In this document: in pieces, positions 1 to 26,453 of the stretch
Position numbering within the stretch: position 1 is the first letter of the stretch
How the letters are laid out: each line of letters begins with the position of its first letter
Origin: Squalus acanthias
Taxonomy: Eukaryota
Direction of reading: 5' to 3'
Assembly: GCA_030390025.1 (NCBI GenBank)
Contig: CM059434.1
Coordinates: forward strand, 95,418,001-95,482,000
Length of the DNA: 64,000 nt
Position numbers and translations under genes: made by a program
Notes under the pieces: model-generated
Told to the model about the DNA's origin: nothing
Seen by the model: the letters and a program-made list of their open reading frames with translations, nothing else
Database searches by the model: none

Positions 1-946
1 TGTATCAGGTTTAAAAACTTACTTTTCTGCTGCATGAAGCCGAGCACAAAATTACGACACTGTAATCTATTCACTTCTATCTTAGTCTCCCAATAAAATT
101 ATTTCAGCAGAGAGAGAATACAACCATATAATGGCCCTTACATTCAGGACATCATTTCATCAAGGACAAGAGTGGCTGGAATTGTCACACAGATTTGATC
201 GTGCTGTTAATGGAGTTCCTGGAATTTCAGTTTTCAATGTCCAGAGGAAACTGCTTCCAATGGACAGATCCATATTGACCTCAGCTGTCCAGATAAACAG
301 TGGCTCTGAAAATACTCGGGCAGCAATCCTGGCGATTATACCAGGGTCACACCTCCCAGGGCCCTCCAGAGCTGACCTGACCAGAGTATGTAGGTCAGTG
401 GGAGGTCCTGTCATTTAAATATTATGGCAGGAACCTGCACCACAATATTCAGACACATGCCCTGCTGCTGTTTCTATTCAGAGGGAAGAGATATGAAATT
501 GCTGGCCATGCCCACTGATGCATCGGTCACTTTCTTGATATGTGTGTGGACAGCATATTGGCTTATAATGAAGAAGAGCCCGATGAAGGCATAAAAGTTG
601 AGGAAAGATTTAAAAGTGGGTGAAACAATATCATGCAACGAATTTGAAGGTATATTAATCATCATATCACTATCCACTTCTCTAATTGAGGCATTAGCCC
701 ATTTCCTTTACATGGATTAATGACTCAATTAAAATGGCAGACAGAAGAATGTCTTACGAATCTGTGCCGCTTTCGGGCTGACTATAATCACTGACTGTAA
801 TTTCTAATCTAAGATCTACTTCTTGCTTTCTCTGCTTGATGTACTGATCCATGTCGGATGTAGAATTTTCACTGCAATAGGACAATCTAGTTCTAAGTGC
901 TTTTGTACTGAAATATAATTTTCTTGCACATAAATGTCATAATTAC

Positions 947-1300
947 CAGGAATGGTGGTTGTAGAGGTCGTTATAGGCAGACTGGTTGTTGTCCATATTA
1001 TTTGTGGCTCACAGCAAACTCGAATGTGGTAGTCATAACATGACGTGTTCTCCTGCAAAGCACTTTCGGTGGCGATACAGACGAGCCCTGTGTCTTTGTC
1101 GCAGGTCACATTGTCTGTTGATTCCCTTACTGGCCACTCAGGGTAATCGACAAATTGGCACTGAATTTTATTAATTGCATCGGAAGAGGAAGGACACAAT
1201 TTATCACGAATGGGATCCAATAATTCAGAATCGCCCGGGCTTGACGGAGTAGGAGTATGTTCGTTAAACCACGGAGACCATTTGCCATTACACACCTCCT
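947..1300 (-). CDS. Mucin CysD (WxxW) exon, copy 5 in transcript order
   Basis: tttacag|AG GAG GTG TGT ... CCT G|gtaatt; 354 nt, phase 1-1; EEVCNGKWSPWFNEHTP...CYDYHIRVCCEP...TTTIP. Confidence 0.93.
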
Positions 1301-2235
1301 CTGTAAAATAAGAAGTCTGGGCTTAATTAATCTGATGTAAATAGCTAGTTAACAGGAAATAGAAGGAGCAAAATTGCAAAACAACTTTTGTAAATGTGAT
1401 GCCATTTCCATACAGTTGTGTGAGATACTTTATCACATTCTAGTTGTACAATTTCACCACAATGATGTAAAGAATATCAAGCCAGCACAACATTTGACTG
1501 TATGACTGATCGAGCATCAGGTTCTGTTTTAATACTAGTTTTACACTCAGCATTTGAAAGATCAAGGGGTGATTTTCATCTGCTTAGAAGGGGTGAGTGG
1601 CGGAGGGAAAGTAATTTTACAAAAGAACCTACTGCCCAGAGGCTGCACGACTCGATTTTCTAGCGGGCAACAAAACAAAAACTGCCGAGACCTGTACTTG
1701 GGCCCGGAACGCTGAGGAATTGTCCAATCGGGGTTTGCAGCTGAACCTGTACGATGGAGTGAGATGGATCGACTACGTCACTTTCCCATTCCGTGATATG
1801 GTTTTACAACCTCAGTACTGACATTGTGTGATAAATAATTTTGATAACTGAAAACATGTTATTCAATAAGTATATATATCATAATACACCCTTCTCGCTT
1901 GGAGCTTCGCTTGTCGGGGGCCCAGAACAGGAACATGGGCGTGTGAGTTAATGCACATCGCAAAATAATCCGTCAATTGGCGTTAAATTCCTGATTTGCA
2001 CCCGTTCCACTAAACGTTATGACAGGAGCACAATTTCCTAAAAGCTGCCCTATAAGTTACAACATAATGACCAGAGATACAAACATTTCCAAAGCAAACA
2101 ATTAGAATTGAAAATTTGAGGTGTAAAACTGAAAGCCGTGTTTTGTTACCTACTCAATGACAGACCACATGGAGTTAGAAACAATCCACTTGTGGAGACA
2201 GACTTGGTGCAAGGTATAAACCCGTTGTCACTTAC

Positions 2236-2295
2236 CAGTTGTGTAGCTGGTGGTAGACGTAGTGGTAATCGGTGTCACTTCTGGTGAGGTAGTTT
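2236..2295 (-). CDS. Mucin PTS 60-nt exon ETTSPEVTPITTTSTTSYTT
   Basis: ctctatag| ... |gtaagt; phase 1-1; Thr/Ser/Pro-rich. Confidence 0.9.
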
Positions 2296-3776
2296 CTATA
2301 GAGCAGGAAAAACATTTCAACCTGTTACACTGCACGCTGAGGCTCTGAGTCTGTATCAGGTTTAAAAACTTACTTTTCTGCTGAAGGTAGCCAGGCAAAA
2401 AAGTTGCGAAAATGAAATCTATTCTCTTCTAAGTCTACTCAATAAAACGATTTTAGCGGAGAGAAATTACAACCGTTTAATGGTCCTTACATTCAGGACA
2501 TCATTTCCACAATATAAGAGTGGCTGGAATTGTCACATAGATTTGATCGTGCTGTTAATGGAGTTCCTGGAATTTCAGTTTTCAATGTCCAGTGGAAACT
2601 GCTTACAATGGACAGATCCATATTGACCTGATTTCCCAGATCAACAGTGGCTCTGAAAATACTCGGGCAGCAATCCTGGCGATTATACCAGGGTCACAAC
2701 TCCCAGGATCCTCCACAGCTGACCTGACCAGAGTATGTAGGTCAGTGTGAGGTCCTGCCATTTAAATATTATGGCAGGGACCTTCACCACAATATTCAGC
2801 CACATGCCATGATGATGTTTCTATTCAGTGGGAAGAGATATGAAATTGCTGGCCATGCCGACCTCTGCATCAGTTACTTACTTGATATGTGCGTGGGCAG
2901 CATATTGGCTTATAATACAGAAGAGCCCCATTCTAGCCCGGAAGGAGGTTAACAAATAACAGCTATTCTACGTTTGATGGCTTTTCCATACAGACTTCTG
3001 AGAAACTTTATCACATTCTAGTTACGCAATTTCACGATTATAATGTTGACATTTGACTGCATGACTGATCTAGCATCAGGTTAATTTCTTCATGCTAGTA
3101 TTCCACTCATCATTTGAAAGATCGAGGGGAGATTTGCATCTGCCTACAATAGGGTGGGAGAGGGGAGATGACATTCTAAGAAAGAGGCTCCCAACTCGAT
3201 TTTCTAGCGGGCATTGAAACAAAAACTGGCGAGCCCTGTACTTGGGCTGGGAACGGTGAGGAATAGTGCGATAGGGTTTTGCAGCTGAACCTGTATGATG
3301 GAGTGAGATGGATCGGCTACATGACTTTCTCTCATTTCTTGATATGGTTTTACAACCTTAGTGTTGACATGGTGTGACAAATAATTTTGATAACTGAAAA
3401 CGTGTTATTAAATTCGAATATAAAATACATCCTTCTTGCTTGGAGCTTCGCTTGCCGGGGGCACAGAACAGGAACATGGGCGTGTGAGTTAATGCACATC
3501 GCAAAATAATCCTTCAATTAGCGTCAAATTCCTGATTTGCACCCATTCCACTAAATGTTATGACAGGAGCACAAGTTCCTAAAAGCTGCCCTATAAGTTA
3601 CAACATAATGACCAGAAATACAAACATTTCCAAAGTAAACAATTAGAATGGAAAATTTGAGGTGTAAAAATGAAAGCCGTGTTTTGTTACCTCCTCAATG
3701 ACAGACCACACGGAGTTAGAAACAATCCACTTGTGGAGACAGACTTGGTGCAAGGTATAAAACCGCTGTCACTTAC

Positions 3777-3836
3777 CAGTTGTGAAGCTGGTGGTAGACG
3801 TAGTGGTAATCGGTGTCACTTCTGGTGAGGTAGTTT
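3777..3836 (-). CDS. Mucin PTS 60-nt exon ETTSPEVTPITTTSTTSFTT
   Basis: Canonical splice sites; phase 1-1. Confidence 0.9.
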
Positions 3837-4085
3837 CTATAGAGCAGGAAAAACATTTCAACCTGTTACACTGCACGCTGAGGCTCTGAGTCTACATCAG
3901 CTTTAAAAACATACTTTTCTGCTGAATGTAGCACGGCAAAAAAGTTGTAAAAATGAAATCTATTCTCTTCTAAGTCTACTCAATAAAACTATTTTAGTGG
4001 AGAGAAATTACAACTATTTAATGGCCCTTACATTCAGGGCATAATTTCCACAAGTATAAGAGTTGCTGGAATTGTCACCTAGATT

Positions 4086-5016
4086 TTTTTTAGTCATTCC
4101 TGGGATGTGGGCGTCGCTGGCACAGCCAGCATTTATTGCCCATCCCTAATTGCACTCGAGAAGGCGGTGGTGTGTCGCCTTCTGGAACCGCTGCAGTCCG
4201 TGTGATGAAGTTACTCCCACAGTGCTGTTGGTGAGGGGGTTCAAGGATTTGGAGCCAGTGATGATGAAGAAACAGCAATATTTTTCCAAGTCAGGATGGT
4301 GTGTCACTTGGAGGGGAACTTACGGGTGATGGTGTTCCAGGCACCTACTGCCCTTGTCCTTCTAGCTGGAAGAGGTCGCGGGTTTGGGAGGTGCTGTCGA
4401 AGAAGCCCTGGCGAGTTGCTGCAGCGCATCTTGTGGATGGGACACACTGCAGCCATGGTACGCCGGTGGTGGAGGGAGTGAATGTTTAAGGTGGTGGATG
4501 GGGTACCAATCAGATGGGCTGCTTTGTCCTGGATGGTGTTGAGCTTCTTGAGTGTTGTTGGAGCTCCACTCATCCAGGCGAATGGACAGTATTCCATCAC
4601 ACTCCTGACTTGTGCCTTGTAGATGGTGGAAAGACTTTGGGAAGTCAGGAGGTGAGACACTTGCCACAGAATAACCCAGCCTCAGATCTGCTCTTGTAGC
4701 CACAGTATTTCTGTTGCTGGTCCAGATACGTTTCTGGTCAATGGTGACCCTGCCCCCCCCAGGATGTTGATGGTGGGGGATTCGGCGATGGTAATGCCGT
4801 TGCATGTCAAGGGGCGGTGGTTCAACTTTCGCTTGTTGGAGATAGTCATTGCCTGGCACTTGTGTGGCACGAATGTTACTTGCCACTTATCAACCCAAGC
4901 CTGAATGTCATCCAGGTTTTGCTGTATTCGGGCATGAACTGCTTCATTATCTGAGGAGTTGTGAATGGAACTGAACACTGTGCAATCATCATCGAACATC
5001 CCCATTTCTGACCTTA
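4086..5016 (-). mobile_element. 5'-truncated LINE (CR1/L2-group RT C-terminus and 3' end), copy A1
   Basis: Frameshifted ...DDCTVF...QQNLDDIQAWVDKWQVTF...YKAQVRSVMEYC...; interrupts the intron sequence agatt|tgatcgtg. Confidence 0.85.
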
Positions 5017-5768
5017 TGATCGTGCTGTTAATGGAGTTCCTGGAAATATGAGATTTCAATGGCCAGTGGAAGCTTCTTACAATAGACATATCCATATTGA
5101 CCTCAGCTGCCCAGAAAAACAATGGCTCTGAAAATACTAGGGTAGAAATCCTGGCAATTATACCAGGATCACATCTCCCAGGGCCCTCCAGCGCTGACCA
5201 GACCAGTGTATGCAGCTCAGTGGGAGATCCTGTCATTTAAATATTATGGCAGGGACCTGCACCACAATATTCAGACACATGCCCTGCTGCTGTTTCTATT
5301 CAGTGGGAAGAGATATGAAATTGCTGGCCATGCCCACTGATGCATCGGTCACTTTCTTGATATGTGTGTGGACAGCATATTGGCTTATAATGAAGAAGAG
5401 CCCGATGAAGGCATAAAAGTTGAGGCAAGATTTAAAAGTGGGTGAAACAATATCATGCAAAGAATTTGAAGGTATATTAATCATCATATCACTATCCACT
5501 TCTCTAATTGAGGCATTAGCCCATTTCCTTTATATGGATTAATAACTCAATTAAAATGGCAGACAGAAGAATGTCTTACGAATCTGTGCCGCTTTCGGGC
5601 TGACTATAATCACTGACTGTAATTTCTAATCTAAGATCTACTTCTTGCTTTCTCTGCTTGATGTACTGATCCATGTCGGATGTAGAATTTTCACTGCAAT
5701 AGGACAATCTAGTTCTAAGTGCTTTTGTACTGAAAGATAATTTTCTTGCACATAAATGTCATAATTAC

Positions 5769-6122
5769 CAGGAATCGTGATTGTAGAGGTCGTTATAGGC
5801 AGACTGGTTGTTGTCCATATTATTTGTGGCTCACAGCAAACTCGAATGTGGTAGTCATAACATGACGTGTTCTCCTGCAAAGCACTTTCGGTGGCGATAC
5901 AGACGAGCCCTGTGTCTTTGTCGCAGGTCACATTGTCTGTTGATTCACTTACTGGCCACTCAGGGTAATCGACAAATTGGCACTGAATTTTATTAATTGC
6001 ATCGGAAGAGGAAGGACACAATTTATCACGAATGGGATCCAATAATTCAGAATCGCCCGGGCTTGACGGAGTAGGAGTATGTTCGTTAAACCACGGAGAC
6101 CATTTGCCATTACACACCTCCT
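5769..6122 (-). CDS. Mucin CysD exon, copy 4
   Basis: 354 nt, phase 1-1; near-identical to the other CysD exons (PVSES, TTSTITIP variant). Confidence 0.93.
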
Positions 6123-7055
6123 CTGTAAAATAAGAAGTCTGGGCTTAATTAATCTGATGTAAATAGCTAGCTAACAGGAAATAGAAGGAGCAAAATTGCA
6201 AAACAACTTTTGTAAATGTGATGCCATTTCCATACAGTTGTGTGAGATACTTTATCACATTCTAGTTGTACAATTTCACCACAATGATGTATAGAATATC
6301 AAGCCAGTACAACATTTGACTGTATGACTGATCAAGCATCAGGTTCTGTTTTAATACTAGTTTTACACTCAGCATTTGAAAGATCAAAGGTAATTTTCAT
6401 CTGCTTAGAAGGGGTGAGTGGCGGAGGGAAGTAATTTTACAAAAGAACCTACTGCCCAGAGGCTGCACAACTCGATTTTCTAGCGGGCATCAAAACAAAA
6501 ACTGGCGAGCCCTGTACTTGGGCCCGGAACGCTGAGGAATTGTCCAATCGGGGTTTGCAGCTGAACCTGTACGATGGAGTGAGATGGATCGACTACGTCA
6601 CTTTCCCATTCCGTGATATGGTTTTACAACCTCAGCACTGACATTGTGTGATAAATAATTTTGATAACTGAAAACATGTTATTCAATAAGTATATATATC
6701 ATAATACACCCTTCTCGCTTGGAGCTTCGCTTGTCGGGGGCCCAGAACAGGAACATGGGCGTGTGAGTTAATGCACATCGCAAAATAATCCATCAATTGG
6801 CGTTAAATTCCTGATTTGCACCCGTTCCACTAAACGTTATGACAGGAGCACAATTTCCTAAAAGCTGCCCTATAAGTTACAACATAATGACCAGAGATAC
6901 AAACATTTCCAAAGCAAACAATTAGAATTGAAAATTTGAGGTGTAAAACTGAAAGCCATGTTTTGTTACCTACTCAGTGACAGACCACATGGAGTTAGAA
7001 ACAATCCATTTGTGGAGACAGACTTGGTGCAAGGTATAAAACCGCTGTCACTTAC

Positions 7056-7115
7056 CAGGTGTGAAGCTGGTGGTAGACGTAGTGGTAATCGGTGTCACTT
7101 CTGGTGAGGTAGTTT
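7056..7115 (-). CDS. Mucin PTS 60-nt exon ETTSPEVTPITTTSTTSFTP
   Basis: Canonical splice sites; phase 1-1. Confidence 0.9.
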
Positions 7116-8198
7116 CTATAGAGCAGGAAAAACATTTCAACCTGTTACACTGCACGCTGAGGCTCTGAGTCTGTATCAGGTTTAAAAACTTACTTTCTGC
7201 TGCAGGTAGCCAGACAAAAAAGTTGCGAAAATGAAATCTATTCACTTCTAAGTCTACTCAATAAAACTATTTTAGCGGAGAGAAATTACAACCGTTTAAT
7301 GGTCCTTACATTCAGGACATCATTTCCACAATATAAGAGTTGCTGGAATTGTCAGATAGATTTGATCGCACTGTTGATGGAGTTCCTGGGAATATTAGTT
7401 TTCAATGGCCAGTGGAATCTTCTTCCAATGGACAGATCCATATTGACCTCAGCTGTCCAGATAAACAGTGGCTCTGAAAATACTCGGGCAGCAATCCTGG
7501 CGATTATACCAGGGTCACATCGACCAGGGCCCTCCAGAGCTGACCTGACCAGAGTATGAAGGTCAGTGGGAGGTCCTGTCATTTAAATATTGGCCCGAAA
7601 ATTAGACCTAATACGCGAGAGTACGCACTGTGCACTCTCGCATTTTAGGTCTCCAATTGCCGGTTTCCTGCATGCACTGCGCATGCGCGGGAAACCGGCA
7701 CTTTGTGAATTCAAAAGGGGGCGGTTCCTAAGTGAACCGCGTGCGCGCTACAGGCTGTGCGCACGCAGTGCACTTAGTTATTTTTCAGCTTTGAACGCGC
7801 AGGTAAGTGGTGAACATTTTACACAAAAAAAAAGCAGGCGTAGGACCCCCTTTTTACAAGGTAAGTAGTTAATTAAGTGTTACTTTAAATTTTTTTCAAC
7901 AGGTTTATCTTTTTTAGAGACTTTAAAGAAAGGTAAGTTTATTTTTATAACTTTTAAAAAGATTTTAATTTTTTTCAAAAATTTAATTTTTTGTTTAAAG
8001 TGGTTAACTTATTTAACTATACTTATTTTATTAATGTGATGGCTTTTTTAAAAATTTAATTGAGGTTTAGCTGTTCTTTTGTGAGGGTATAGTATTCATA
8101 GCTTTGACAGGTCTTCCTGTCAAAACTATGAATGAAAGATAACAGAAAACGCTGGAAAAACTCAGCAGGCCAGGCAGCATCCGTAGAGAGAGAAAGAG

Positions 8199-8235
8199 AG
8201 TTGACGTTTCAGGTCGATGACCTTTCATCAGAACT
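8199..8235 (-). ncRNA. Minimal type I hammerhead ribozyme motif (inverted copy)
   Basis: Reverse complement reads AGTT CTGATGA A AGGTC ATC GACCT GAAAC GTC AACT. Confidence 0.75.
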
Positions 8236-8501
8236 GGGCGAAGAGAAGAGCAGAACTTCTTCAAGGTAGGCATTCCAAGAAGAGAGGTGGCAGTGAACCA
8301 AACACTAATACGATAGCAAAATACTGCAGATGCTGGAAATCCGAAATAACAACAGAAAACGCTGGAAAAACTCAGCGTTTTCTGTTGTTATTTCGGATTT
8401 CCAGCATCTGCAGTATTTTGCTATCGTATTAGTGTTTGGTTCACTGCCACCTCTCTTCTTGGAATGCCTACCTTGAAGAAGTTCTGCTCTTCTCTTCGCC
8501 C

Positions 8502-8538
8502 AGTTCTGATGAAAGGTCATCGACCTGAAACGTCAACT
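8502..8538 (+). ncRNA. Minimal type I hammerhead ribozyme motif
   Basis: Stem I AGTT/AACT; core CTGATGA; stem II AGGTC/GACCT; GAAA; loop-less palindromic stem III ACGT; GTC cleavage triplet at 8532-8534. Confidence 0.8.
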
Positions 8539-8711
8539 CTCTTTCTCTCTCTACGGATGCTGCCTGGCCTGCTGAGTTTTTCCAGCGTTTTCTGTTGTTA
8601 TTTCGGATTTCCAGCATCTGCAGTATTTTGCTATCGTATTAGTGTTTGGTTCACTGCCACCTCTCTTCTTGGAATGCCTACCTTGAAGAAGTTCTGCTCT
8701 TCTCTTCGCCC

Positions 8712-8748
8712 AGTTCTGATGAAAGGTCATCGACCTGAAACGTCAACT
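8712..8748 (+). ncRNA. Minimal type I hammerhead ribozyme motif (tandem copy)
   Basis: Identical to 8502-8538, 210 nt downstream. Confidence 0.8.
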
Positions 8749-9510
8749 CTCTTTCTCTCTCTACGGATGCTGCCTGGCCTGCTGAGTTTTTCCAGCGTTT
8801 TCTGTTGTTATTTCGGATTTCCAGCATCTGCAGTATTTTGCTATCGTATGAATGAAAGATGGTGTGCTGCCATTGGCTCTAACTGAATCACGTGATCCCA
8901 GAGCTCGCACGAACTAATTGCGTCTCTGGGTCATGCAAGTACTGCACAGCTGCATGTGGGACTGGCCTTGAAACTAAAGTTCGTGTGGGCCCGGAGGAAA
9001 AAGGTAGGCGCGCAGTGAGATATCGCGGGGAAGCCTTACCCCCGCGCGAACACTCACTGTTTAATTTCTGGGCCATTATGGCAGGAACCTTCACCACAAT
9101 ATTCAGACACATGCCCTGCTGCTGTTTCTATTCAGTGGGAAGAGATATGAAATTGCTGGCCATGCCCACTGATGCATCAGTTACTTTCTTGATATGTGTG
9201 TGAGCAGAATATTGTCTTGTAATGCAGAAGAGCCCGATGCTAGCCTGGAAGGAGATGAACACATAACAGCTATTCTAAGTTTGATGGCTTTTCCATACAG
9301 ATTGTGAAGTACTTTATAACATTCTAGTTGCACAATTTCACAATAATGGTACAAAGAATATCAAGCCAGCACAACATTTGACTGTATGACTGATCTAGCA
9401 TCAGGTTGTTTTATCATACTAGTTTTACACTCAGCATTTGAAAGCGCAAGGGGTAATTTTCATCTCCTTACGAGGGCGGGAGTGGCGGAGGGAAAGTAAT
9501 TCTACAAAAG

Positions 9511-9945
9511 GGTCGACTAGGCCTGTATTCACTAGAGTTTAGAAGAATGAGAGGGGATCTCATTGAAACGTATAAAATTCTGACAGGGCTAGACAGACTG
9601 GATGCAGGGAGGATGTTTCCCCTGGCTGGTGGGTCTAGAACGAGGGGTCACAGTCTCAGGATATGGGGTAGGACATTTAGGACTGAGATGAGGAGAAATT
9701 TCTTCACTCAGAGGGTGGTGAACCTGTGGAATTCTCTACCACAGAAGGCTGTGGAGACCATGTCACTGAATATATTTAAGAAGGAGATAGATATATTTCT
9801 GGACACAAAAGGCATCAAGGGGTATGGGGAGGGAACGGGAATATGTTATTGAGATAGAGGATCAGCCCTGATCATGTTGAATGGCGGAGCAGACTCGAGG
9901 GGCCGAATGGCCTACTCCTGCTCCTATTTTCTGTTCTATGTTTCT
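9511..9945 (+). mobile_element. CR1 LINE 3' fragment, copy B1
   Basis: MRGDLIETYKIL...RRNFFTQRVVNLWNSLP, then 3'UTR with ttctatg tail. Confidence 0.9.
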
Positions 9946-10543
9946 AGAACCTACTGCCAAGAGGCGGCAAGACTTGATTTTCTAGTGGGCATCGTAAAAA
10001 ATGTTGAGCCCGGTACTTGGGCTCGGAACGGTGAGAAATAGTCCAAAAGAGTTTTGCAGCTGAAGCTGTATGATGGGGTGAGATTGATCGGCTACATGAC
10101 TTTCTATCATTCCTTGATATTTCCTTGACATTGTGTGACAAATAATTTTGATAAGTGCAAACGTGTTATTTAATAAGATTATCTATTATAATACACCCTT
10201 CTCGCTTGGAGCTTCGCTTGTCGGGGTTACATAACAGGAATATGAGCGTGGAAATTAATGCACATCGCAAAATAATCCGTCAATTGGCGCCAAATTCCTG
10301 ATTTGCGCCCATTCCGCTAAACATTATGTCAAGAGCACAATTTCCTAAAAGCTGCACTATAAGTTACAACATAATGACCAGAGATTCAAAAATTTCCGAA
10401 GCAAACAATTTGAAAGGAAAATTTGTGATGTAAAAATGAAAGCCGTGTTTTGTTAACTACTCAATGACAGACCACATGGAGTTAGAAAACAATCCACCTC
10501 TGGAGACAGACTTGGTGCAAGGTATAAAACCGCTGTCACTTAC

Positions 10544-10603
10544 CAGTTGTGTAGCTGGTGGTAGACGTAGTGGTAATCGGTGCTTCTTCTGGTACTGTAG
10601 TTT
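10544..10603 (-). CDS. Mucin PTS 60-nt exon ETTVPEEAPITTTSTTSYTT
   Basis: Canonical splice sites; phase 1-1. Confidence 0.9.
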
Positions 10604-11603
10604 CTATAGAGCAGGAAATCATTTCAACCTGTTACACTGCACGCTGAGGCTCTGAGTCTGTATCAGTTTTAAAAACTTACTTTTCTGCTGCATGAAGCCG
10701 AGCACAAAATTACGAAAATTATATCTATTCACTTCTATCTTAGTCTCCCAATAAAATTATTTTATCAGAGAGAGAATACAACCACATAATGGCCCTTACA
10801 TTCAGGACATCATTTCATCAAGTATAAGAGTGGCTGGAATTGTCACATAGATTTGATCGTGCTGTTAATGGAGTTCCTGGAATTTCAGTTTTCAATGTCC
10901 AGTGGAAACTGCTTACAATGGACAGATCCATATTGACCTGATTTCCCAGATCAACAGTGGCTCTGAAAATACTCGGGCAGCAATCCTGGCGATTATACCA
11001 GGGTCACAACTCCCAGGATCCTCCACAGCTGACCTGACCAGAGTATGTATGTCAGTGGGAGGTCCTGTCATTTAAATATTATGGCAGCAACCTTCACCAC
11101 AATATTCAGCCACATGCCATGATGATGTTTCTATTCAGTGGGAAGAGATATGAAATTGCTGGCCATGCCCACTGATGCATCGGTCACTTTCTTGATATGT
11201 GTGTGGACAGCATATTGGCTTATAATGAAGAAGAGCCCGATGAAGGCATAAAAGTTGAGGCAAGATTTAAAAGTGGGTGAAACAATATCATGCAAAGAAT
11301 TTGAAGGTATATTAATCATCATATCACTATCCACTTCTCTAATTGAGGCATTAGCCCATTTCCTTTATATGGATTAATAACTCAATTAAAATGGCAGACA
11401 GAAGAATGTCTTACGAATCTGTGCCGCTTTCGGGCTGACTATAATCACTGACTGTAATTTCTAATCTAAGATCTACTTCTTGCTTTCTCTGCTTGATGTA
11501 CTGATCCATGTCGGATGTAGAATTTTCACTGCAATAGGACAATCTAGTTCTAAGTGCTTTTGTACTGAAAGATAATTTTCTTGCACATAAATGTCATAAT
11601 TAC

Positions 11604-11957
11604 CAGGAATCGTGATTGTAGAGGTCGTTATAGGCAGACTGGTTGTTGTCCATATTATTTGTGGCTCACAGCAAACTCGAATGTGGTAGTCATAACATGA
11701 CGTGTTCTCCTGCAAAGCACTTTCGGTGGCGATACAGACGAGCCCTGTGTCTTTGTCGCAGGTCACATTGTCTGTTGATTCACTTACTGGCCACTCAGGG
11801 TAATCGACAAATTGGCACTGAATTTTATTAATTGCATCGGAAGAGGAAGGACACAATTTATCACGAATGGGATCCAATAATTCAGAATCGCCCGGGCTTG
11901 ACGGAGTAGGAGTATGTTCGTTAAACCACGGAGACCATTTGCCATTACACACCTCCT
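11604..11957 (-). CDS. Mucin CysD exon, copy 3
   Basis: 354 nt, phase 1-1; WSPW motif, 8 Cys. Confidence 0.93.
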
Positions 11958-12891
11958 CTGTAAAATAAGAAGTCTGGGCTTAATTAATCTGATGTAAATA
12001 GCTAGTTAACAGGAAATAGAAGGAGCAAAATTGCAAAACAACTTTTGTAAATATGATGCCATTTCCATACAGTTGTGTGAGATACTTTATCACATTCTAG
12101 TTGTACAATTTCACCACAATGACGTATAGAATATCAAGCCAGCACAACATTTGACTGTATGACTGATCAAGCATCAGGTTCTGTTTTAATACTAGTTTTA
12201 CACTCAGCATTTGAAAGATCAAGGGGTGATTTTCATCTGCTTAGAAGGGGTGAGTGGCGGAGGGAAAGTAATTTTACAAAAGAACCTACTGCCCAGAGGC
12301 TGCACAACTTGATTTTTTAGCGGGCATCAAAACAAAAACTGGCAAGCCCTGTACTTGGGCCCGGAATGCTGAGGAATTGTCCAATCGGGGTTTGCAGCTG
12401 AACCTGTACGATGGAGTGAGATGGATCGACTACGTCACTTTCCCATTCCGTGATATGGTTTTACAACCTCAGCACTGACATTGTGTGATAAATAATTTTG
12501 ATAACTGAAAACATGTTATTCAATAAGTATATATATCATAATACACCCTTCTCGCTTGGAGCTTCGCTTGTAGGGGCCCAGAACAGGAACATGGGCGTGT
12601 GAGTTAATGCATATCGCAAAATAATCCGGCAACTGGCGTTAAATTCCTGATTTGCACCCGTTCCACTAAACGTTCTGACAGGAGCACAATTTCCTAAAAG
12701 CTGCCCTATAAGTTACAACATAATGACCAGAGATACAAACATTTCCAATTCAAACAATTAGAATTGAAAATTTGAGGTGTAAAACTGAAAGCCGTGTTTT
12801 GTTACCTACTCAATGACAGACCACATGGAGTTAGAAACAATCCATTTGTGGAGACAGACTTGGTGCAAGGTATAAACCCGCTGTCACTTAC

Positions 12892-12951
12892 CAGTTGTGT
12901 AGCTGGTGGTAGACGTAGTGGTAATCGGTGTCACTTCTGGTGAGGTAGTTT
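12892..12951 (-). CDS. Mucin PTS 60-nt exon ETTSPEVTPITTTSTTSYTT
   Basis: Canonical splice sites; phase 1-1. Confidence 0.9.
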
Positions 12952-13714
12952 CTATAGAGCAGGAAAAACATTTCAACCTGTTACACTGCACGCTGAGGCT
13001 CTGAGTCTGTATCAGGTTTAAAAACTTACTTTCCTGTTGCACATAGCCGAGCACAAAAATTGTGAAATGAAATCTTTCAGATCTATCGAAGTCTACCCAA
13101 TAAAGATATTTTAGTGGATAAACAAGACAATTAATATGCAGACATACATTCAGTACATCATTTCCACACTATAAGAGTAGGTGGAATTGTCAAGCAGATT
13201 TAATGGAGTTCCTGGAAATACAAGTTTTCAATGTCCACTGGAAACTTCTTCCAATGGACAGATCCATATTGACCTCAGCTGTCCAGATAAACAGTGGCTC
13301 TGAAAATACTCGGGCAGCAATCCTGGCGATTATACCAGGGTCACATCGACCTGGGCCCTTCACCACAATATTCAGACACATGCCATGCTGCTGTTTCTAT
13401 TCAGAGGGAAGAGATATGAAATTGCTGGTCATGCCGACCTCTGCATCAGTTACTTTCTTGATATGTGTGTGGACAGCATAGTGGCTTAAAATACAGAAGA
13501 GCCCGATGCTAGCCCGGAAGGAGGTTAACGCATAACAGCTATTCTAGGTTTGATGGCTTTTCCAAACTGACTTGTGCAATACTTTATCTCATTATGGTTA
13601 TAAAATTTCACGATTTTAGTGAAAAGAATATCAAGCCAGCATAACATTTGACTGCATGACTGGTCGAGCATCAGGTTGTTTTATCATACTCGTATTTCTT
13701 TCATCATTTGAAAG

Positions 13715-14403
13715 AACATAAGAACATAAGAAATAGGAGCAGGAGTAGGCCATTTGGCCCCTCGAACCTGCTCCGCCATTCAATAAGATCATGGCTGATT
13801 TTCTACCTCAACTCCACCTTCCTGTTCCTGCACAATCCCCATATTCCTTGATTCCCTTAATATCCAAAAATCAATTGATCTCTGTCTTGAATATAGTCAA
13901 CGACTGAGCCTCCACAGCCCTCTGGGGTAGAGAATTCCAAAGATTCACCACCCTCTGAGTGAAGAAATTTCTCCTCATCTCAGTCCTAAATGGCCGACCC
14001 CTTATTTTGAGACTGTGACCCCTGGTGCTAGACTCCCCAGCCAGGGGAAACATCCTCCCTGCATCTTCCCTGTCAAGCCCTGTAAGAATTTTGTATGTTT
14101 CAATGAGCTCACCGCTCATTCTTCTAAACTCTAGGGAATATAGGCCTTGTCTACTCAATCTCTCCTCATACGATAATCCCCCCATCCCAGGAATCAGTCT
14201 GGTGAAACTTCGTTACACTCCCTTTATGGCAAGTATATCCTTCCTTAGGTAAAGAGACCAAAACTGTACACAATACTCCAGGTGTGGTCTCACCAGGGCC
14301 CTATATAATTGCTGTAGATGTCTTTACTCTTATACTCAAATCCTCTTGTAATAAAGGCCAACATACCATTTGCATTACTAATTGCTTGCTGTACCTGCAT
14401 GTT
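13715..14403 (-). mobile_element. CR1 LINE 3' fragment, copy C1
   Basis: MGGLSYEERLSRQGLYSLEFRRM...FFTQRVVNLWNSLP; (aagaacat)n tail on the + strand. Confidence 0.9.
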
Positions 14404-15069
14404 AAGGAGATTAGGAAGTGATTTTTAGCTGCCTGTGAGGGGAGATGAAATTGTGAAAAAGAATCTACTACTCAGAGGCCGCCCGACTCAATTTTCCAGC
14501 AGGCATCGAAACAAAAACTGGCGAGTCCTGTACCTAGTCTCAGAACGGTGAGGAATAGTCCGATAGGGTTTTGCAGCTGAACCAGTAGCATGGAGAGAGA
14601 TGGATCGGCTACATGACTTTCTCTCATTCCTTGATATGCTTTACATACTCAGTTTAAATATTGTCTGACAAATCATTTTGATAACTGAAAATGTGTTATT
14701 TAGTAATATATATTTTAACACATCCTTCTCGCTTGGAGGACCGCACAGCAGGGGCACATCATAGGAATAGAAGCGTGGAAGTTAATGCACATCTCAAAAT
14801 AATCCTTCAATTGGCGTCAAATTCCTGATTTGCACCCATTCCACTAAACGTTATGTCAGGAGCACAAGTTCCTAAAAGCTGCCCTATAAGTTACAACATA
14901 ATGACCAGAGATACAAACATTTCCAAAGCAAACAATCAGAATTGAAAATTTGGGGTTTAAAACTGAAAGCCGTGTTTTGTTACCTCCTCAATGACAGACC
15001 ACATGGAGTTAGAAACAATCCACTTGTGGAGACAGACTTGGTGCAAGGTATAAAACCGCTGTCACTTAC

Positions 15070-15129
15070 CAGTTGTGTAGCTGGTGGTAGACGTAGTGGT
15101 AATCGGTGTCACTTCTGGTGAGGTGGTTT
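15070..15129 (-). CDS. Mucin PTS 60-nt exon ETTSPEVTPITTTSTTSYTT
   Basis: Canonical splice sites; phase 1-1. Confidence 0.9.
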
Positions 15130-15378
15130 CTATAGAGCAGGAAAAACATTTCAACCTGTTACACTGCACGCTGAGGCTCTGAGTCTGTATCAGCTTTAAA
15201 AACATACTTTTCTACTGAATGTAGCACGGCAAAAAAGTTGTAAAAATGAAATCTATTCTCTTCTAAGTCTACTCAATAAAACTATTTTAGTGGAGAGAAA
15301 TTACAACAATTTAATGGCCCTTACATTCAGGGCATAATTTCCACAAGTATAAGAGTTGCTGGAATTGTCACCTAGATT

Positions 15379-16305
15379 TTTTTTTATTCGTTCCTGGGAT
15401 GTGGGCGTCGCTGGCACAGCCAGCATTTATTGCCCATCCCTAACTGCACGCGAGAAGGCGGTAGTGAGTCGACTTCTTGAAACGCTACAGTCCGTGTGAT
15501 GAAGTTTCTCCCACAGTGCTGTTGGTGAGGGGGTTCAAGGATTTGGAGCCAGTGATGATGAAGAAACAGCAATAATTTTCCAAGTCAGGATGGTGTGTCA
15601 CTTGGAGGGGAACTTACGGGTGATGGTGTTCCAGGCACCTACTGCCCTTGTCCTTCTAGCTGGAAGAGGTCGCAAGTTTGGGAGGTGCTGTCGAAGAAGC
15701 CCTGGCGAGTTGCTGCAGTGCATCTTGTAGATGGGTCACACTGTAACCACGGTACGCCGGCGGTGGAGTGAGTGAATGTTTAAGGTGGTGGATGGGGTGC
15801 CTATCAGATGGGCTGCTTTGTCCTGGAAGGTGTCGAGCTTCTTGAGTGTTGTTGGAGCTCCACTCATCCAGGCGAATGGACAGTATTCCATCACACTCCT
15901 GACTTGTGCCTTGTAGATGGTGGAAAGACTTTGGGAAGTCAGGAGGTGAGACACTTGCCACAAAATACCCAGCCCCAAACCTGCTCTTGTAGCCACAATA
16001 TTTATGTGGCTGGTCCAGTTACGTTTCTGGTCAATGGTGACCCCCCACCAGGATGTTGATGGTGGGGGATTCGGCGATGGTAATGCCGTTGAATGTCATT
16101 GGGCGGTGGTTCGACTTTCGCTTGTTGGAGATAGTCATTGCCTGGCACTTGTGTGGAGCGAATGTTACTTGCCACTTATCAACCCAAGCCTGAATGTCAT
16201 CCAGGTCTTGCTGTATTCGGGCATGAACTGCTTCATTATCTGAGGAGTTGTGAATGGAACTGAACACTGTGCAATCATCATTGAACATCCCCATTTCTGA
16301 CCTTA
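15379..16305 (-). mobile_element. 5'-truncated LINE, copy A2
   Basis: Same sequence, junctions and truncation point as 4086-5016. Confidence 0.85.
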
Positions 16306-17057
16306 TGATCGTGCTGTTAATGGTGTTTCTGGAAATATGAGATTTCAATGGCCTGTGGAAGCTTCTTATAATAGACAGATCCATATTGCCCTCAGCTGCC
16401 CAGAAAAACAGTGGCTCTGAAAATACTAGGGTAGAAATCCTGGCAATTATACCAGGATCACATCTCCCAGGGCCCTCCAGTGCTGACCAGACCAGAGTAT
16501 GCAGCTCAGTGGGAGATCCTGTCATTTAAATATTATGGCAGGGACCTGCACCACAATATTCAGACACATGCGCTGCTGCTGTTTCTATTCAGTGGGAAGA
16601 GATATGAAATTGCTGGCCATGCCCACTGATGCATCGGTCACTTTCTTGATATGTGTGTGGACAGCATATTGGCTTATAATGAAGAAGAGCCCGATGAAGG
16701 CATAAAAGTTGAGGCAAGATTTAAAAGTGGGTGAAACAATATCATGCAAAGAATTTGAAGGTATATTAATCATCATATCACTATCCACTTCTCTAATTGA
16801 GGCATTAGCCCATTTCCTTTATGTGGATTAATGACTCAATTAAAATGGCAGACAGAAGAATGTCTTACGAATCTGTGCCGCTTTCGGGCTGACTATAATC
16901 ACTGACTGTAATTTCTAATCTAAGATCTACTTCTTGCTTTCTCTGCTTGATGTACTGATCCATGTCGGATGTAGAATTTTCACTGCAATAGGACAATCTA
17001 GTTCTAAGTGCTTTTGTACTGAAAGATAATTTTCTTGCACATAAATGTCATAATTAC

Positions 17058-17411
17058 CAGGAATCGTGGTTGTAGAGGTCGTTATAGGCAGACTGGTTGT
17101 TGTCCATATTATTTGTGGCTCACAGCAAACTCGAATGTGGTAGTCATAACATGACGTGTTCTCCTGCAAAGCACTTTCGGTGGCAATACAGACGAGCCCT
17201 GTGTCTTTGTCGCAGGTCACATTGTCTGTTGATTCACTTACTGGCCACTCAGGGTAATCGACAAATTGGCACTGAATTTTATTAATTGCATCGGAAGAGG
17301 AAGGACACAATTTATCACGAATGGGATCCAATAATTCAGAATCGCCCGGGCTTGACGGAGTAGGAGTATGTTCGTTAAACCACGGAGACCATTTGCCATT
17401 ACACACCTCCT
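17058..17411 (-). CDS. Mucin CysD exon, copy 2
   Basis: 354 nt, phase 1-1. Confidence 0.93.
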
Positions 17412-18345
17412 CTGTAAAATAAGAAGTCTGGGCTTAATTAATCTGATGTAAATAGCTAGTTAACAGGAAATAGAAGGAGCAAAATTGCAAAACAACTTTT
17501 GTAAATATGATGCCATTTCCATACAGTTGTGTGAGATACTTTATCACATTCTAGTTACACAATTTCACCACAATGATGTAAAGAATATCAAGCCAGCACA
17601 ACATTTGACTGTATGACTGATCTAGCATCAGGTTCTGTTTTAATACTAGTTTTACACTCAGCATTTGAAAGATCAAAGGTGATTTTCATCTGCTTAGAAG
17701 GAGTGAGTGGCGGAGGGAAAGTAATTTTACAAAAGAACCTACTGCCCAGAGGCTGCACAACTCGATTTTCTAGCGGGCATCAAAACAAAAACTGGCGAGC
17801 CCTGTACTTGGGCCCGGAACGCTGAGGAATTGTCCAATCGGGGTTTGCAGCTGAACCTGTACGATGGAGTGAGATGGATCGACTACGTCACTTTCCCATT
17901 CCGTGATATGGTTTTACAACCTCAGCACTGATATTGTGTGATAAATAATTTTGATAACTGAAAACATGTTATTCAATAAGTATATATATCATAATACACC
18001 CTTCTCGCTTGGAGCTTCGCTTGGCGGGGGCCCAGAACAGGAACATGGGCGTGTGAGTTAATGCACATCGCAAAATAAACCGTCAATTGGCGTTAAATTC
18101 CTGATTTGCACCCGTTCCACTAAACGTTATGACAGGAGCACAATTTCCTAAAAGCTGCCCTATAAGTTACAACATAATGAACAGAGATACAAACATTTCC
18201 AAAGCAAACAATTAGAATTGAAAATTTGGGGTTTAAAACTGAAAGCCGTGTTTTGTTACCTACTCAGTGACAGACCACACGGAGTTAGAAACAATCCACT
18301 TGTGGAGACAGACTTGGTGCAAGGTATAAAACCGCTGTCACTTAC

Positions 18346-18405
18346 CAGGTGTGTAGCTGGTGGTAGACGTAGTGGTAATCGGTGTCACTTCTGGTGAGGT
18401 AGTTT
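18346..18405 (-). CDS. Mucin PTS 60-nt exon ETTSPEVTPITTTSTTSYTP
   Basis: Canonical splice sites; phase 1-1. Confidence 0.9.
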
Positions 18406-19315
18406 CTATAGAGCAGGAAAAACATTTCAACCTGTTACACTGCACACTGAGGCTCTGAGTCTGTATCAGGTTGAAAAACTTACTTTTCTGCTGAAGGTAG
18501 CCAGGCAAAAAAGTTGCAAAAATGAAATCTATTCACTTCTAAGTCTACTCAATAAAACTATTTTAGCGGAGAGAAAATACAACCGTTTAATGGCCCTTAC
18601 ATTCAGGACATCATTTCCACAATATAAGAGTGGCTGGAATTGTCAGATAGATTTGATCGCACTGTTAATGGAGTTCCTGGAAATATGAGTTTTCAATGTC
18701 CAGTGGAATCTTCTTCCAATGGACAGATCCATATTGACCTCAGCTGTCCAGATAAACAGTGACTCTGAAAATACTCGGGCAACAATCCTGGCGATTATAC
18801 CAGGGTCACACCACCCAGGGCCCTCCAGAGCTGACCTGACCAGAGTATGTAGGTCAGTGGGAGATCCTGTCATTTAAATATTATGGCAGGGACCTTCACC
18901 ACAATATTCAGACACATGCCCTGCTGCTGTTTCTATTCAGTGGGAAGAGATATGAAATTGCTGGCCATGCCCACTGATACATCGGTCACTTTCTTGATAT
19001 GTGTGTGAGCAGAATATTGCCTTCTAATGCAGAAGAGCCCGATGGTAGCCCAGAAGGAGATGAACACATAACAGCTATTCTAAGTTTGATGGCTTTTCCA
19101 TACAGATTGTGAAGTACTTTATAACATTCTAGTTGCACAATTTCACAATAATGGTACAAAGAATATCAAGCCAGCACAACAATTGACTGTATGACTGATC
19201 TAGCATCAGGTTGTTTTATCATACTAGTTTTACACTCAGCATTTGAAAGCGCAAGGGGTGATTTTCATCTCCTTACGAGGGCGGGAGTGACGGAGGGAAA
19301 GTAATTCTACAAAAG

Positions 19316-19746
19316 GGTCGACTAGGCCTGTATTCACTAGAGTTTAGAAGAATGAGAGGGGATCTCATTGAAACGTATAAAATTCTGACAGGGCTAGACA
19401 GACTGGATGCAGGGAGGATGTTTCCCCTGGCTGGTGGGTCTAGAACGAGGGGTCACAGTCTCAGGATATGGGGTAGGACATTTAGGACTGAGATGAGGAG
19501 AAATTTCTTCACTCAGAGGGTGGTGAACCTGTGGAATTCTCTACCACAGAAGGCTGTGGCGGCCATGTCACTGAATATATTTAAGAAGGAGATAGATATA
19601 TTTCTAGACACAAAAGGCATCAAGGGGTATGGGGAGGGAATGGGAATATGTTATTGAGATAGAGGATCAGCCATGATCATGTTGAATGGCGGAGCAGACT
19701 CGAGGGGCCGAATGGCCTACTCCTGCTCCTATTTTTCTATGTTTCT
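19316..19746 (+). mobile_element. CR1 LINE 3' fragment, copy B2
   Basis: Same junctions as 9511-9945. Confidence 0.9.
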
Positions 19747-20344
19747 AGAACCTACTGCCAAGAGGCGGCAAGACTTGATTTTCTAGTGGGCATCGTAAAA
19801 AATGTTGAGCCCGGTACTTGGGCTCGGAACGGTGAGAAATAGTCCAAAAGAGTTTTGCAGCTGGAGCTGTATGATGGGGTGAGATTGATCGGCTACATGA
19901 CTTTCTATCATTCCTTGATATTTCCTTGACATTGTGTGACAAATAATTTTGATAAGTGCAAACATGTTATTTAATAAGATTATCTATTATAATACACCCT
20001 TCTCGCTTGGAGCTTCGCTTGCCGGGGTTACATAACAGGAATATGAGCGTGGAAATTAATGCACATCGCAAAATAATCCGTCAATTGGCGTCAAATTCCT
20101 GATTTGCGCCCATTCCGCGAAACGTTATGTCAAGAGCACAATTTCCTAAAAGCTGCCCTATAAGTTACAACATAATGACCAGAGATTCAAAAATTTCCGA
20201 AGCAAACAATCACAAAGGAAAATTTGTGATGTAAAAATGAAAGCCATGTTTTGTTACCTCCTCAATGACATACCACACGGAGATAGAAAACAATCCGCCT
20301 CTGGAGACAGACTTGGTGCAAGGTATAAAACCGCTGTCACTTAC

Positions 20345-20404
20345 CAGTTGTGTAGCTGGTGGTAGACGTAGTGGTAATCGGTGTCACTTCTGGTACTGTA
20401 GTTT
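20345..20404 (-). CDS. Mucin PTS 60-nt exon ETTVPEVTPITTTSTTSYTT
   Basis: Canonical splice sites; phase 1-1. Confidence 0.9.
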
Positions 20405-21230
20405 CTATAGAGCAGGAAAACATTTCAACCTGTTACACTGCACGCTGAGGCTCTGAGTCTATATCAGGTTTAAAAACTTACTTTCCTGTTGCACATAGCC
20501 GAGCACAAAAATTGTGAAATGAAATCTTTCAGATCTATCGAAGTCTACTCAATAAAATTATTTCAGTGGATAAACAAGACAATTAATATACGGCCATACT
20601 TTCAGTACATCATTTCCACACTATCAGAGTTGGTGGAATTGTCAAGCAGATTTAATGGAGTTCCTGGAAATACAAGTTTTCAATGTCCACTGGAAACTTC
20701 TTCCAATGGACAGATCCATATTGACCTCAGCTGTCCAGATAAACAGTGGCTCTGAAAATACTCGGGCAGCAATCCTGGCGATTATTCCAGGGTCACACCT
20801 CCCAGGGCCCTCCAGAGCTGAGCTGACCAGAGTATGTCGGTCAGTAGGAGGTCCTGTCATTTAAATATTATGGCAGGGCCCTTCACCACAATATTCAGAC
20901 ACATGCCCTGCTGCTGTTTCTATTCAGAGGGAAGAGATATGAAATTGCTGGTCATGCCGACCTCTGCATCAGTTACTTTCTTGATATGTCTGTGGTCAGC
21001 ATATTGGCTTATAATACACAAGAGTCCGATGCTAGCCCGGTTAACGCATAACAGCTATTCTAGGTTGGATGGCTTTTCCAAGCTGACTTGTGCAGTACTT
21101 TATCACATTATGGTTATAAAATTTCACGATGTTAGTGAAAAGAATATCAATCCAGCATAACATTTGACTGCATGACTGGTCGAGCGTCAGATTGTTTTAT
21201 CATACTCGTATTTCATTCATCATTTGAAAG

Positions 21231-21912
21231 AACATAAGAAATAAGAGCAGGAGTAGGCCATTTGGCCCCTTGAACCTGCTCCGCCATTCAATAAGATCAT
21301 GGCTGATTTTCTACCTCAACTGCACTTTCCTGTTCCTGCACTATCCCCATATTCCTTGATTCCCTTAATATCCAAAAAACAATTGATCTCTGTCTTGAAT
21401 ATAGTCAACGACTGAGCCTCCACAGCTCTCTGGGGTAGAGAATTCCAAAGATTCACCACCCTCTGAGTGAAGAAATTTCTCCTCATCTCAGTCCTAAATG
21501 GCCGACCCCTTATTTTGAGACTGTCACCCCTTGTTCTAGACTCCACAGCTAGGGGAAACATCCTCCCTGTATCTTCCCTGTCAAGCCCTGTAAGAATTTT
21601 GTATGTTTCAATGAGCTCATTGCCCATTCTTCTAAACTCTAGAGAATATAGGCCTAGTCTACTCAATCTCTCCTCATACGACAATCCCCCCATCCCAGGA
21701 ATCAGTCTGGTGAAACTTCGTTACACTCCCTTTATGGCAAGTATATCCTTCCTTAGGTAAAGAGACCAAAACTGTACACAATACTCCAGGTGTGGTCTCA
21801 CCAGGGCCCTATATAATTGCTGTAGATGTCTTTACTCTTATACTCAAATCCTCTTGTAATAAAGGCCAACATACCTTTTGCATTACTAATTGCTTGCTGT
21901 ACCTGCATGTTA
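21231..21912 (-). mobile_element. CR1 LINE 3' fragment, copy C2
   Basis: Same junctions as 13715-14403. Confidence 0.9.
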
Positions 21913-22563
21913 AGGAGATTAAGGAGGTGATTTTTAGCTGCCTGTGAGGGGAGATGAAATTGTGCAAAAGAATCTACTACCCAGAGACCGCCCGACTCAA
22001 TTTTCTAGCAGGCATCGAAACAAAAACTGGCGAGCCCTGTACCTAGTCTCAGAACGGTGAGGAATAGTCCGATAGGGTTTTGCAGCTGAACCTGTAGCAT
22101 GGAGAGAGATGCATCGGCTACATGACTTTCTCTCATTCCTTTACATACTCAGTTTAAATATTGTGTGACAAATCATTTTGATAACTGAAAACGTGTTATT
22201 TAATATTTTAATACATCCTTCTCGCTTGGAGGACCGCACAGCGGGGGCACATCACAGGAATAGAAGCGTGTGAGTTAATGCACATCTCAAAATAATCCAT
22301 CAATTGGCGTCAAATTCCTGATTTGCGCCCATTCCGCTAAACGTTATGTCAACAGCACAATTTCCTAAAAGCTGCCCTATAAGTTACAACATAATGACCA
22401 GAGATTCAAAAATTTCCGAAGTAAACAATTTGAAAGGAAAATTTGTGATGTAAAAATGAAAGCCGTGTTTTGTTACCTACTCAATGACAGACCACATGGA
22501 GTTAGAAAACAATCCACCTCTGGAGACAGACTTGGTGCAAGGTATAAAACCGCTGTCACTTAC

Positions 22564-22623
22564 CAGTTGTGTAGCTGGTGGTAGACGTAGTGGTGATCGG
22601 TGTTTCTTCTGGTACTGTAGTTT
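22564..22623 (-). CDS. Mucin PTS 60-nt exon ETTVPEETPITTTSTTSYTT
   Basis: Canonical splice sites; phase 1-1. Confidence 0.9.
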
Positions 22624-24106: not shown

Positions 24107-24166
24107 CAGGTGTGAAGCTGGTGGTAGACGTAGTGGTAATCGGTGTCACTTCTGGTGACGTAGCTT
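24107..24166 (-). CDS. Mucin PTS 60-nt exon EATSPEVTPITTTSTTSFTP
   Basis: Canonical splice sites; phase 1-1. Confidence 0.9.
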
Positions 24167-24415
24167 CTATAGAGCAGGAAAAACATTTCAACCTGTTACA
24201 CTGCACGCTGAGGCTCTGAGTCTACATCAGGTTTAAAAACATACTTTTCTGCTGAATGTAGCACGGCAAAAAAGTTGTAAAAATGAAATCTGTTCTCTTC
24301 TAAGTCTACTCAATAAAACTATTTTAGTGGAGAGAAATTATAACTATTTAATGGCCCTTACATTCAGGGCATAATTTCCACAAGTATAAGAGTTGCTGGA
24401 ATTGTCACCTAGATT

Positions 24416-26099: not shown

Positions 26100-26453
26100 C
26101 AGGAATGGTGGTTGTAGAGGTCGTTATAGGCAGACTGGTTGTTGTCCATATTATTTGTGGCTCACAGCAAACTCGAATGTGGTAGTCATAACATGACGTG
26201 TTCTCCTGCAAAGCACTTTCGGTGGCGATACAGACGAGCCCTGTGTCTTTGTCGCAGGTCACATTGTCTGTTGATTCCCTTACTGGCCACTCAGGGTAAT
26301 CGACAAATTGGCACTGAATTTTATTAATTGCATCGGAAGAAGAAGGACACAATTTATCACGAATGGGATCCAATAATTCAGAATCGCCCGGGCTTGACGG
26401 AGTAGGAGTATGTTCGTTAAACCACGGAGACCATTTGCCATTACACACCTCCT
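26100..26453 (-). CDS. Mucin CysD exon, copy 1 in transcript order
   Basis: 354 nt, phase 1-1; PVRES variant. Confidence 0.93.

Follow-up and report, generated by a model that had tools for sequence, protein, structure and literature searches.

A single-locus tandem of hammerhead units in Squalus acanthias, derived from a Penelope-like element and probably built by template jumping

An insert in the window analysed here, 64,000 nt of Squalus acanthias contig CM059434.1, carries three identical hammerhead units of 210 nt (2.3 copies direct, 1.1 inverted) within a 14-bp target duplication. It is a single-locus, non-coding derivative of a Penelope-like element and not a family. Its identity to the parent, its private joint, and its family-typical ends and duplication are directly observed, and the tandem units were, we think, probably made in one insertion by the Penelope reverse transcriptase (RT) jumping back repeatedly on a short stretch of parent RNA. 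How Penelope elements rebuild their tandem ends, the role of the hammerhead and the origin of retrozymes are open questions, with limited life-cycle evidence according to the available part of a 2026 preprint (bioRxiv 10.64898/2026.07.22.740005). That there is a class of retrozymes derived from Penelope elements is already known; the route of origin is the new part, and the insert may show the birth of animal 'retrozyme' repeats. The intact parent differs very little from dozens of mini-tandems, which makes their joints legible base by base; these joints suggest that the unit is made by the reverse transcriptase rather than by the ribozyme.

Results

Architecture of the Insert

The initial annotation described identical 210-nt hammerhead units, tandem and inverted, bracketed by a 14-bp target-site duplication, and recomputed repeats confirm this layout between 8127 and 8860 (Table 1). 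The direct arm has a TRF period of 210 with 100% matches, its copies being 100% identical, and the inverted arm (236 nt) pairs with 8571-8806 at 100% complementarity. The first 3 bases of the duplication also match the unit, so that the right end of the insert falls at 8846-8849. With parent positions counted from the ribozyme cut (+1 after the cut, -1 before it), the joint links +174 to -36, skips about 2,990 nt of the parent's ORF and 3′ region, and shows no microhomology. The GC content of the insert is 46%. The joint is in frame, which turns the unit into an endless 70-codon frame (8509-8846, plus strand) holding the first 66 codons of the parent protein; this is probably chance, since 19 of 59 distinct joints yield units divisible by three. 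Splicing is an improbable origin of the joint, as the skipped part has no initial GT and the insert still has the acceptor-like bases that precede stem I. A pyrimidine run ending in AG (8495-8503) abuts stem I; an intron end at helix I of Drosophila Penelope, described in the accessible part of PMC4209133, resembles this run.

Table 1. Coordinates of the insert, its host locus and the related tandems (window positions unless a locus or contig is named)
Feature	Position	Strand	Remarks
Left target-site duplication, 14 bp	8127..8140	.	single copy in sister MITE near 62061
Right target-site duplication, 14 bp	8847..8860	.	paired with 8127-8140
Direct arm, 2.26 copies of the 210-nt unit	8373..8846	+	ends at parent +102 (to +105)
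Inverted arm	8141..8376	-	parent +37..+174, joint, -36..-1, +1..+62; 3′ end faces outward
Head-to-head meeting point of the arms, 4-nt overlap	8373..8376	.	from repeat comparison
Joint, parent +174 to -36	8498..8499	+	again at 8708/8709; inverted at 8239/8238
Minimal type I hammerhead 1	8502..8538	+	predicted cut after 8534
Minimal type I hammerhead 2	8712..8748	+	hammerhead 1 +210; predicted cut after 8744
Hammerhead core of the inverted arm	8203..8231	-	the only one sense to the host gene
Host MITE (non-autonomous DNA element, short terminal inverted repeats)	7591..9074	.	absent from sister array units
Host array, mucin-like gene	1..34790	-	repeated WxxW (CysD) exons, short Thr/Ser/Pro exons
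Candidate short Thr/Ser/Pro exons	7056-7115; 10544-10603	-	flank the insertion
Longest mini-tandems among the loci parsed	L193 C11:31458.7-31460.6 kb; L194 C12:29347.4-29348.9 kb		7 and 6 joints
35-nt minisatellite	L093:3574-5501 with L164:1-1110; contig 1 about 60171070-60173110

A Penelope-like Parent

When the genome was searched with the unit, two separate stretches of the unit gave many matches at 100%. As the unit joins parent +1..+174 to -36..-1, it consists of the parent's two ends without the middle. A retroelement origin and a neighboring RT/GIY-YIG frame, both anticipated by the initial annotation, are borne out: the unit, which lacks the middle, has no mismatch to a 3.2-kb Penelope-like element, and the search located it in an element with such a frame. 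The same 1004-codon open frame is present in 10 of 20 fetched loci and gives 971 aa from an ATG within the ribozyme core (8509-8511 in hammerhead 1). This single ORF combines an RT (RVT_1, E 2e-5) with a C-terminal GIY-YIG domain (E 4e-4), both below the Pfam cut-offs, as in endonuclease-bearing Penelope-like elements; the atlas neighbors of the protein are RT/GIY-YIG proteins of Penelope-like type at 0.98, and a PDB sequence search with the protein gave 0 matches. It also has a C-X4-C-X2-C linker. A CX2-5CxxC linker before the endonuclease is a mark of Neptune and Nematis in the available part of PMC8557442, and the parent is apparently of Neptune type, by its motifs rather than by a tree. 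The partial tandem, the inverted truncated arm and a 30-40-nt tail are likewise those of endonuclease-bearing Penelope elements.

The 11 full-length 3.2-kb units are 1-17 substitutions apart (mean 8.5), and the window unit has 0 mismatches to 2 of them and 1 mismatch to the other 9. The parent element is apparently young and still active. At 57159-57256 the window also has a solo 3′ end from this Penelope group that is older (90%); it is truncated before reaching the ribozyme and ends near +98.

Copy Number and Insertion Ends

Genome-wide, the 41-nt ribozyme is matched exactly 2,907 times and its reversed control 0 times, so the motif is not due to chance. The exact +174/-36 joint, by comparison, has 3 matches in the assembly, all within the window. 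Two parts of the initial annotation consequently lack support: the unit was said to be defined by the ribozyme, whereas the joint sits 36 nt upstream of the cut site, and the 210-nt unit was taken for a spreading element, whereas its joint occurs at one locus only in this assembly. At least 80 mini-element loci are present in the genome, their joints being mostly private.

An unselected sample, the first 100 exact-ribozyme matches on contig 1, comprises 85 insertions, among them 3 full-length copies and 4 mini-elements. Of 101 3′ ends, 95 lie in two clusters, 54 at +66..71 and 41 at +100..108; another two values come from parser artefacts. Each of the 16 two-armed insertions combines one short with one long 3′ end, a pairing suggestive of priming by a protein dimer at two sites of the same RNA. 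The commonest duplication is 14 bp (15/85; for about a quarter of the insertions the finder gave no value or a short one). Measured against this sample, the ends of the window insert (+62 and +102..105), its duplication and its head-to-head arms are ordinary. These features bear on whether the insert arose by change at the DNA level after insertion (internal deletion of a full copy followed by local duplication and inversion) or as an assembly artefact. Growth of minisatellites from Penelope ends has been proposed (bioRxiv 10.64898/2026.07.22.740005, in the part available), and perfect inverted repeats can arise as read artefacts; such an origin is nevertheless very improbable here, as a single duplication brackets the whole insert, the two arms terminate at the pair of RT start sites used by the family, and the layout is common to dozens of loci, each with its own duplication.

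Origin of the Tandem Joints

Junction searches scored 40 candidates each, so that the numbers are lower bounds biased to the query and joint hot spots are partly query-made. They yielded at least 91 candidate loci, of which 80 were parsed into 73 distinct joints, landing at +144..+269 and leaving from -14..-428; 10 of the 73 are common to 2-5 loci each. A transcription start at about -130 to -141 was considered as the cause of the joint hot spot in that region, and simple 5′ ends there number about 2 in 85 insertions, with no pile-up. At 60 clean joints, the mean microhomology is 1.67 against 0.87 by chance (0 of 20,000 resamples), an excess that would favor template switching over RNA ligation.

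We find that four shared joints occur on different sequence variants. The +18 marker, for instance, occurs in both its variants with the +255/-132 joint, and a private change at +108 is likewise informative; the +84/85 marker is a CpG and is weak. In each of the two longest arrays (contigs 11 and 12), one odd 257-nt unit is present, with the same joint in both, which is found nowhere else among the 40 scored candidates. Since these odd units carry the variants of their own array, the odd joint was made twice, with the array itself as template in both cases. Two joints that differ by 2 nt occur at a locus on contig 24. Furthermore, 58 perfect 35-nt copies (ORF about 649-683) form the 5′ end of one contig 1 insertion, inside a 13-bp duplication. 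This minisatellite was apparently born with its insertion; it fits reiteration without any ribozyme and in that respect supports jumping, although it could have grown after insertion.

Together, the near-identical parent, the unique joint, the ends and duplication of the family, the microhomology and the odd joints arising de novo make repeated template jumping likely. In such a mechanism, the endonuclease would nick both strands about 14 nt apart, and two reverse transcriptions would begin, one per nick, from the internal start sites (+66..71 and +100..108). In both, the RT would copy back through the ribozyme to -36, jump to +174 of RNA yet to be copied and repeat the cycle, and the two 5′-truncated arms would then be fused head to head at their 4-nt overlap. 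Neither ribozyme cleavage nor a circular RNA would be necessary for making the tandem.

Several observations weigh against jumping. The three window joints are identical and have no microhomology, and one of them lies in the other arm, which would be simplest if the template, as a circle or a tandem RNA, already held the joint. Joints are uniform in 31 of 35 multi-joint loci (L205, L217 and L247 were dropped as parser artefacts), and the four odd joints are all readable as deletions of a longer form, possibly made while copying a circle. At the multi-joint loci (L201 unparsed), parent sequence past the main joint amounts to at most 2 nt in any odd unit. The odd joint of L211 is a 10-nt repeat slip, and a similar slip lies away from the joint in L022; multi-base changes occur at joints in 4 loci and also away from joints in 2 (L201 unparsed). 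Some shared joints share variants too, such as +170/-37 on contigs 4 and 14, as descent from mother to daughter predicts, and a mother may be missing from one assembly.

Two kinds of circular template have to be weighed against jumping on this evidence. In the classical retrozyme cycle, proposed as a model in PMC4209133 and PMC7229834 (in the parts available), a first template switch gives a two-hammerhead mother, whose transcript is cut twice by the dimeric ribozyme and ligated into a 210-nt circle that the Penelope RT rolling-copies into the locus, the mother having since been lost or not assembled. This cycle would explain why joints are identical across both arms of the insert and within other loci, why 10 joints recur at several loci, some with the same variants, and why no copy extends upstream past its own joint. 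The upstream repeats of full-length copies are also very variable in length, as if copied from a circle. We nonetheless consider the classical cycle unlikely, because no mother was found (the joint occurs only in the window in this assembly), the same joints lie on different variants, odd joints arise inside arrays and, as described below, dimer cleavage appears poor. The 5′ ends show no pile-up where the ribozyme would cut: of about 26 mini-element loci, as judged on fetched loci, 1 starts there, a count that is neutral for circles as such.

Alternatively, a closed template or one with fixed ends may have formed independently of the ribozyme, as a nuclease-trimmed -36..+174 RNA ligated to a circle, or as a cDNA circle, and been copied in one event. 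Such a circle would account for joints that are private yet exactly repeated, including the microhomology-free +174/-36. It is rather improbable, as RNA ligation would give no excess of microhomology, and the recurrent odd joints and the 35-nt array are less simply explained by it. If repeated jumping is instead the general route, Penelope RTs may have a telomerase- or DRT2-like capacity for repeat addition on linear RNA, producing tandems and minisatellites de novo at scores of loci with neither cleavage nor circles, and the insert would be a freshly made case; we advance this broader claim tentatively.

The Hammerheads and Their Predicted Folds

The initial annotation recognized a minimal hammerhead of Penelope type. 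We find the parts of the motif in place, in a parent that is itself Penelope-like, and the predicted cuts, after 8534 and 8744, are 210 nt apart as it had proposed. In hammerhead 1, stem I (8502-8505/8535-8538) encloses the core (8506-8512), an extra A (8513), stem II (8514-8518/8522-8526), GAAA (8527-8530) and the palindromic 8530-8533. The core CUGANGA ... GAAA ... UH with stems I and II agrees with the Penelope-type minimal hammerhead (min-HHR) in the accessible part of PMC4209133, and the extra base between 9 and 10.1, the palindromic 15.2-16.2 without loop 3 and the short stem I are all present. The G10.1-C11.1 pair is replaced by A-U in the insert, and by G-U in some older copies. Rfam gave no match at gathering score in the 64-kb window, and its 17 weak matches in 8100-8900 include no hammerhead family and reflect the fold-back hairpin; the ribozyme call is based on the motif, on published features of Penelope min-HHRs and on the position within the parent element. 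Fetched loci contain 26 ribozyme variants, most commonly changed at N7, at position 17 (C/U) and in loop 2, with no compensatory pair changes and with the core also broken in decayed copies. Position 17 is mostly U in contigs of related genomes.

Folding predicts a stem II pairing probability of about 0.9 and a dimer stem III probability of 0.0. The forced dimer, at -43.3 kcal/mol, lies about 15 above the minimum of -58.1, in a model that takes in neither non-canonical core contacts nor help from protein; within that model the dimer is not favored, which argues against the classical cycle. Penelope hammerheads reportedly cleave as dimers in one study. In the available parts of the literature, min-HHR dimers show low cleavage (PMC4209133) and 1 of 9 Xenopus dimers was active (bioRxiv 10.64898/2026.07.22.740005), and an Anolis element needed its protein in vitro with ribozyme cleavage dispensable and no reads at the cut site (PMC11167929); these reports also stand against that cycle.

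The 210-nt RNA that the initial annotation proposed would have to come from the plus strand, which holds two sense ribozymes 210 nt apart. In a plus transcript that includes the inverted arm, one ribozyme would be masked by a predicted hairpin of 236 bp. The host pre-mRNA, from the minus strand, would contain a single ribozyme, fully paired in the predicted fold. A promoter at the insert is doubtful, as just 36 nt of the parent upstream region are left. The insert is probably inert at its locus. Once completed, its tandem is arranged like a non-LTR retrozyme, and plus-strand transcription could allow it to give rise to one. When RNA-labelled contigs were compared with a full-length Penelope copy, the +174/-36 joint was not among the 15 of 40 joints listed. 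These contigs, whose RNA origin is a guess, show fixed differences and probably come from other species.

The Host Locus

The insert lies in a MITE that DNA contigs of two runs skip, passing from 7588 to 9075. The initial annotation had called the insertion recent, and this holds, the unit having 0-1 mismatches to full-length parents and a sister MITE (61536-62284) having the target sequence once. Its dating by sister copies stands for that MITE but not for the sister array units, which lack the whole MITE and so cannot date an insertion inside it. No contig bridging the empty inner site is among the 15 of 572 joints listed for DNA contigs against the window. We liken the host MITE to DDE_Tnp_4 elements by the 3-bp duplication and GGC ends. 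A DDE_Tnp_4 transposase frame (E 1.5e-35) adjoins a Penelope copy elsewhere in the genome (L031:4762-5523, minus strand), and such elements may mobilise the MITE.

The surrounding mucin-like array, recognised by its WxxW exons (Pfam PF13330, E 3e-16), is encoded on the minus strand and so runs opposite to the ribozymes of the direct arm. As the insert lies between two candidate Thr/Ser/Pro exons, it is likely intronic. The WxxW exons of the array (1-34790) are near-identical, with a higher-order period of about 9 kb, and a 19-nt tandem (34972-35156; 9.7 copies, 97% matches) marks the array's end. Farther along, an 88% direct repeat (41137-41682 / 44823-45347) lies in a region, 41137-52317, whose open frames have no Pfam match at E 0.01; we take them to resemble envelope and integrase pieces, possibly of a decayed provirus-like element.

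Discussion

The closest known systems are compared here as far as the available parts of the cited papers describe them. Neptune/Nematis-type Penelope-like elements share with the insert the loop-less palindromic stem III, the extra base after the core and the short stem I of their min-HHRs (PMC4209133; PMC8557442; PMC3846280), the motif in a terminal repeat and, in the parent, the CX2-5CxxC linker (PMC8557442), as well as the partial tandem with an inverted truncated arm and a 30-40-nt tail on one arm only (PMC3846280). The insert differs from them in the A-U pair at 10.1-11.1, a 5-bp stem II, the loss of the ORF and the repetition of a new joint. Anolis Poseidon PAc resembles the parent in having two internal RT starts about 35 nt apart near the ORF start, a start codon at the ribozyme and cleavage of both strands (PMC11167929); it belongs to another clade, and the accessible part of that paper reports no making of tandems by repeated jumps.

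Telomerase and bacterial DRT2 make tandem DNA from one linear RNA by template jumping (PMC12039810), much as the Penelope RT would in the route that we propose. The likeness is functional only: telomerase and DRT2 rely on a dedicated non-coding RNA whose template limits are fixed, whereas the limits in Penelope would change from event to event and the tandem would be a by-product of a transposon. If the proposal is true, telomerase's sister group keeps a repeat-addition behavior. In the literature covered, which takes in subscription papers and older Drosophila Penelope work thinly, we came across no description of a Penelope RT copying reiteratively, or of joints specific to each insertion.

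Metazoan non-LTR retrozymes (PMC7229834; bioRxiv 10.64898/2026.07.22.740005) are, like the insert, short non-coding tandems with a type I hammerhead per copy, a duplication of >4 bp, GC <50% and an origin in the Penelope pLTR region. The units of the insert fall in their size range (about 150-450 bp) and each has a type I hammerhead; the insert has a long duplication and neither an LTR nor a full ORF, and its two or more consecutive motif-bearing units agree with the working definition of the preprint (bioRxiv 10.64898/2026.07.22.740005). It differs in that retrozymes form self-spreading, multi-copy families with a canonical hammerhead, whereas its joint is found at one locus, its hammerhead is minimal and it is known here from DNA. 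In the part of the preprint available, which samples one cartilaginous fish, animal retrozymes are non-autonomous Penelope derivatives whose repeats may stem from later local amplification or rolling circle; its families are linked to Penelope-like elements by tree and co-occurrence, whereas the insert displays its exact parent and joint. A different mini-element joint (+242 to about -99, with 2 extra bases; L040:1501 to 4361) appears in three runs from two studies and two organisms, and perhaps belongs to an established retrozyme-like family in relatives.
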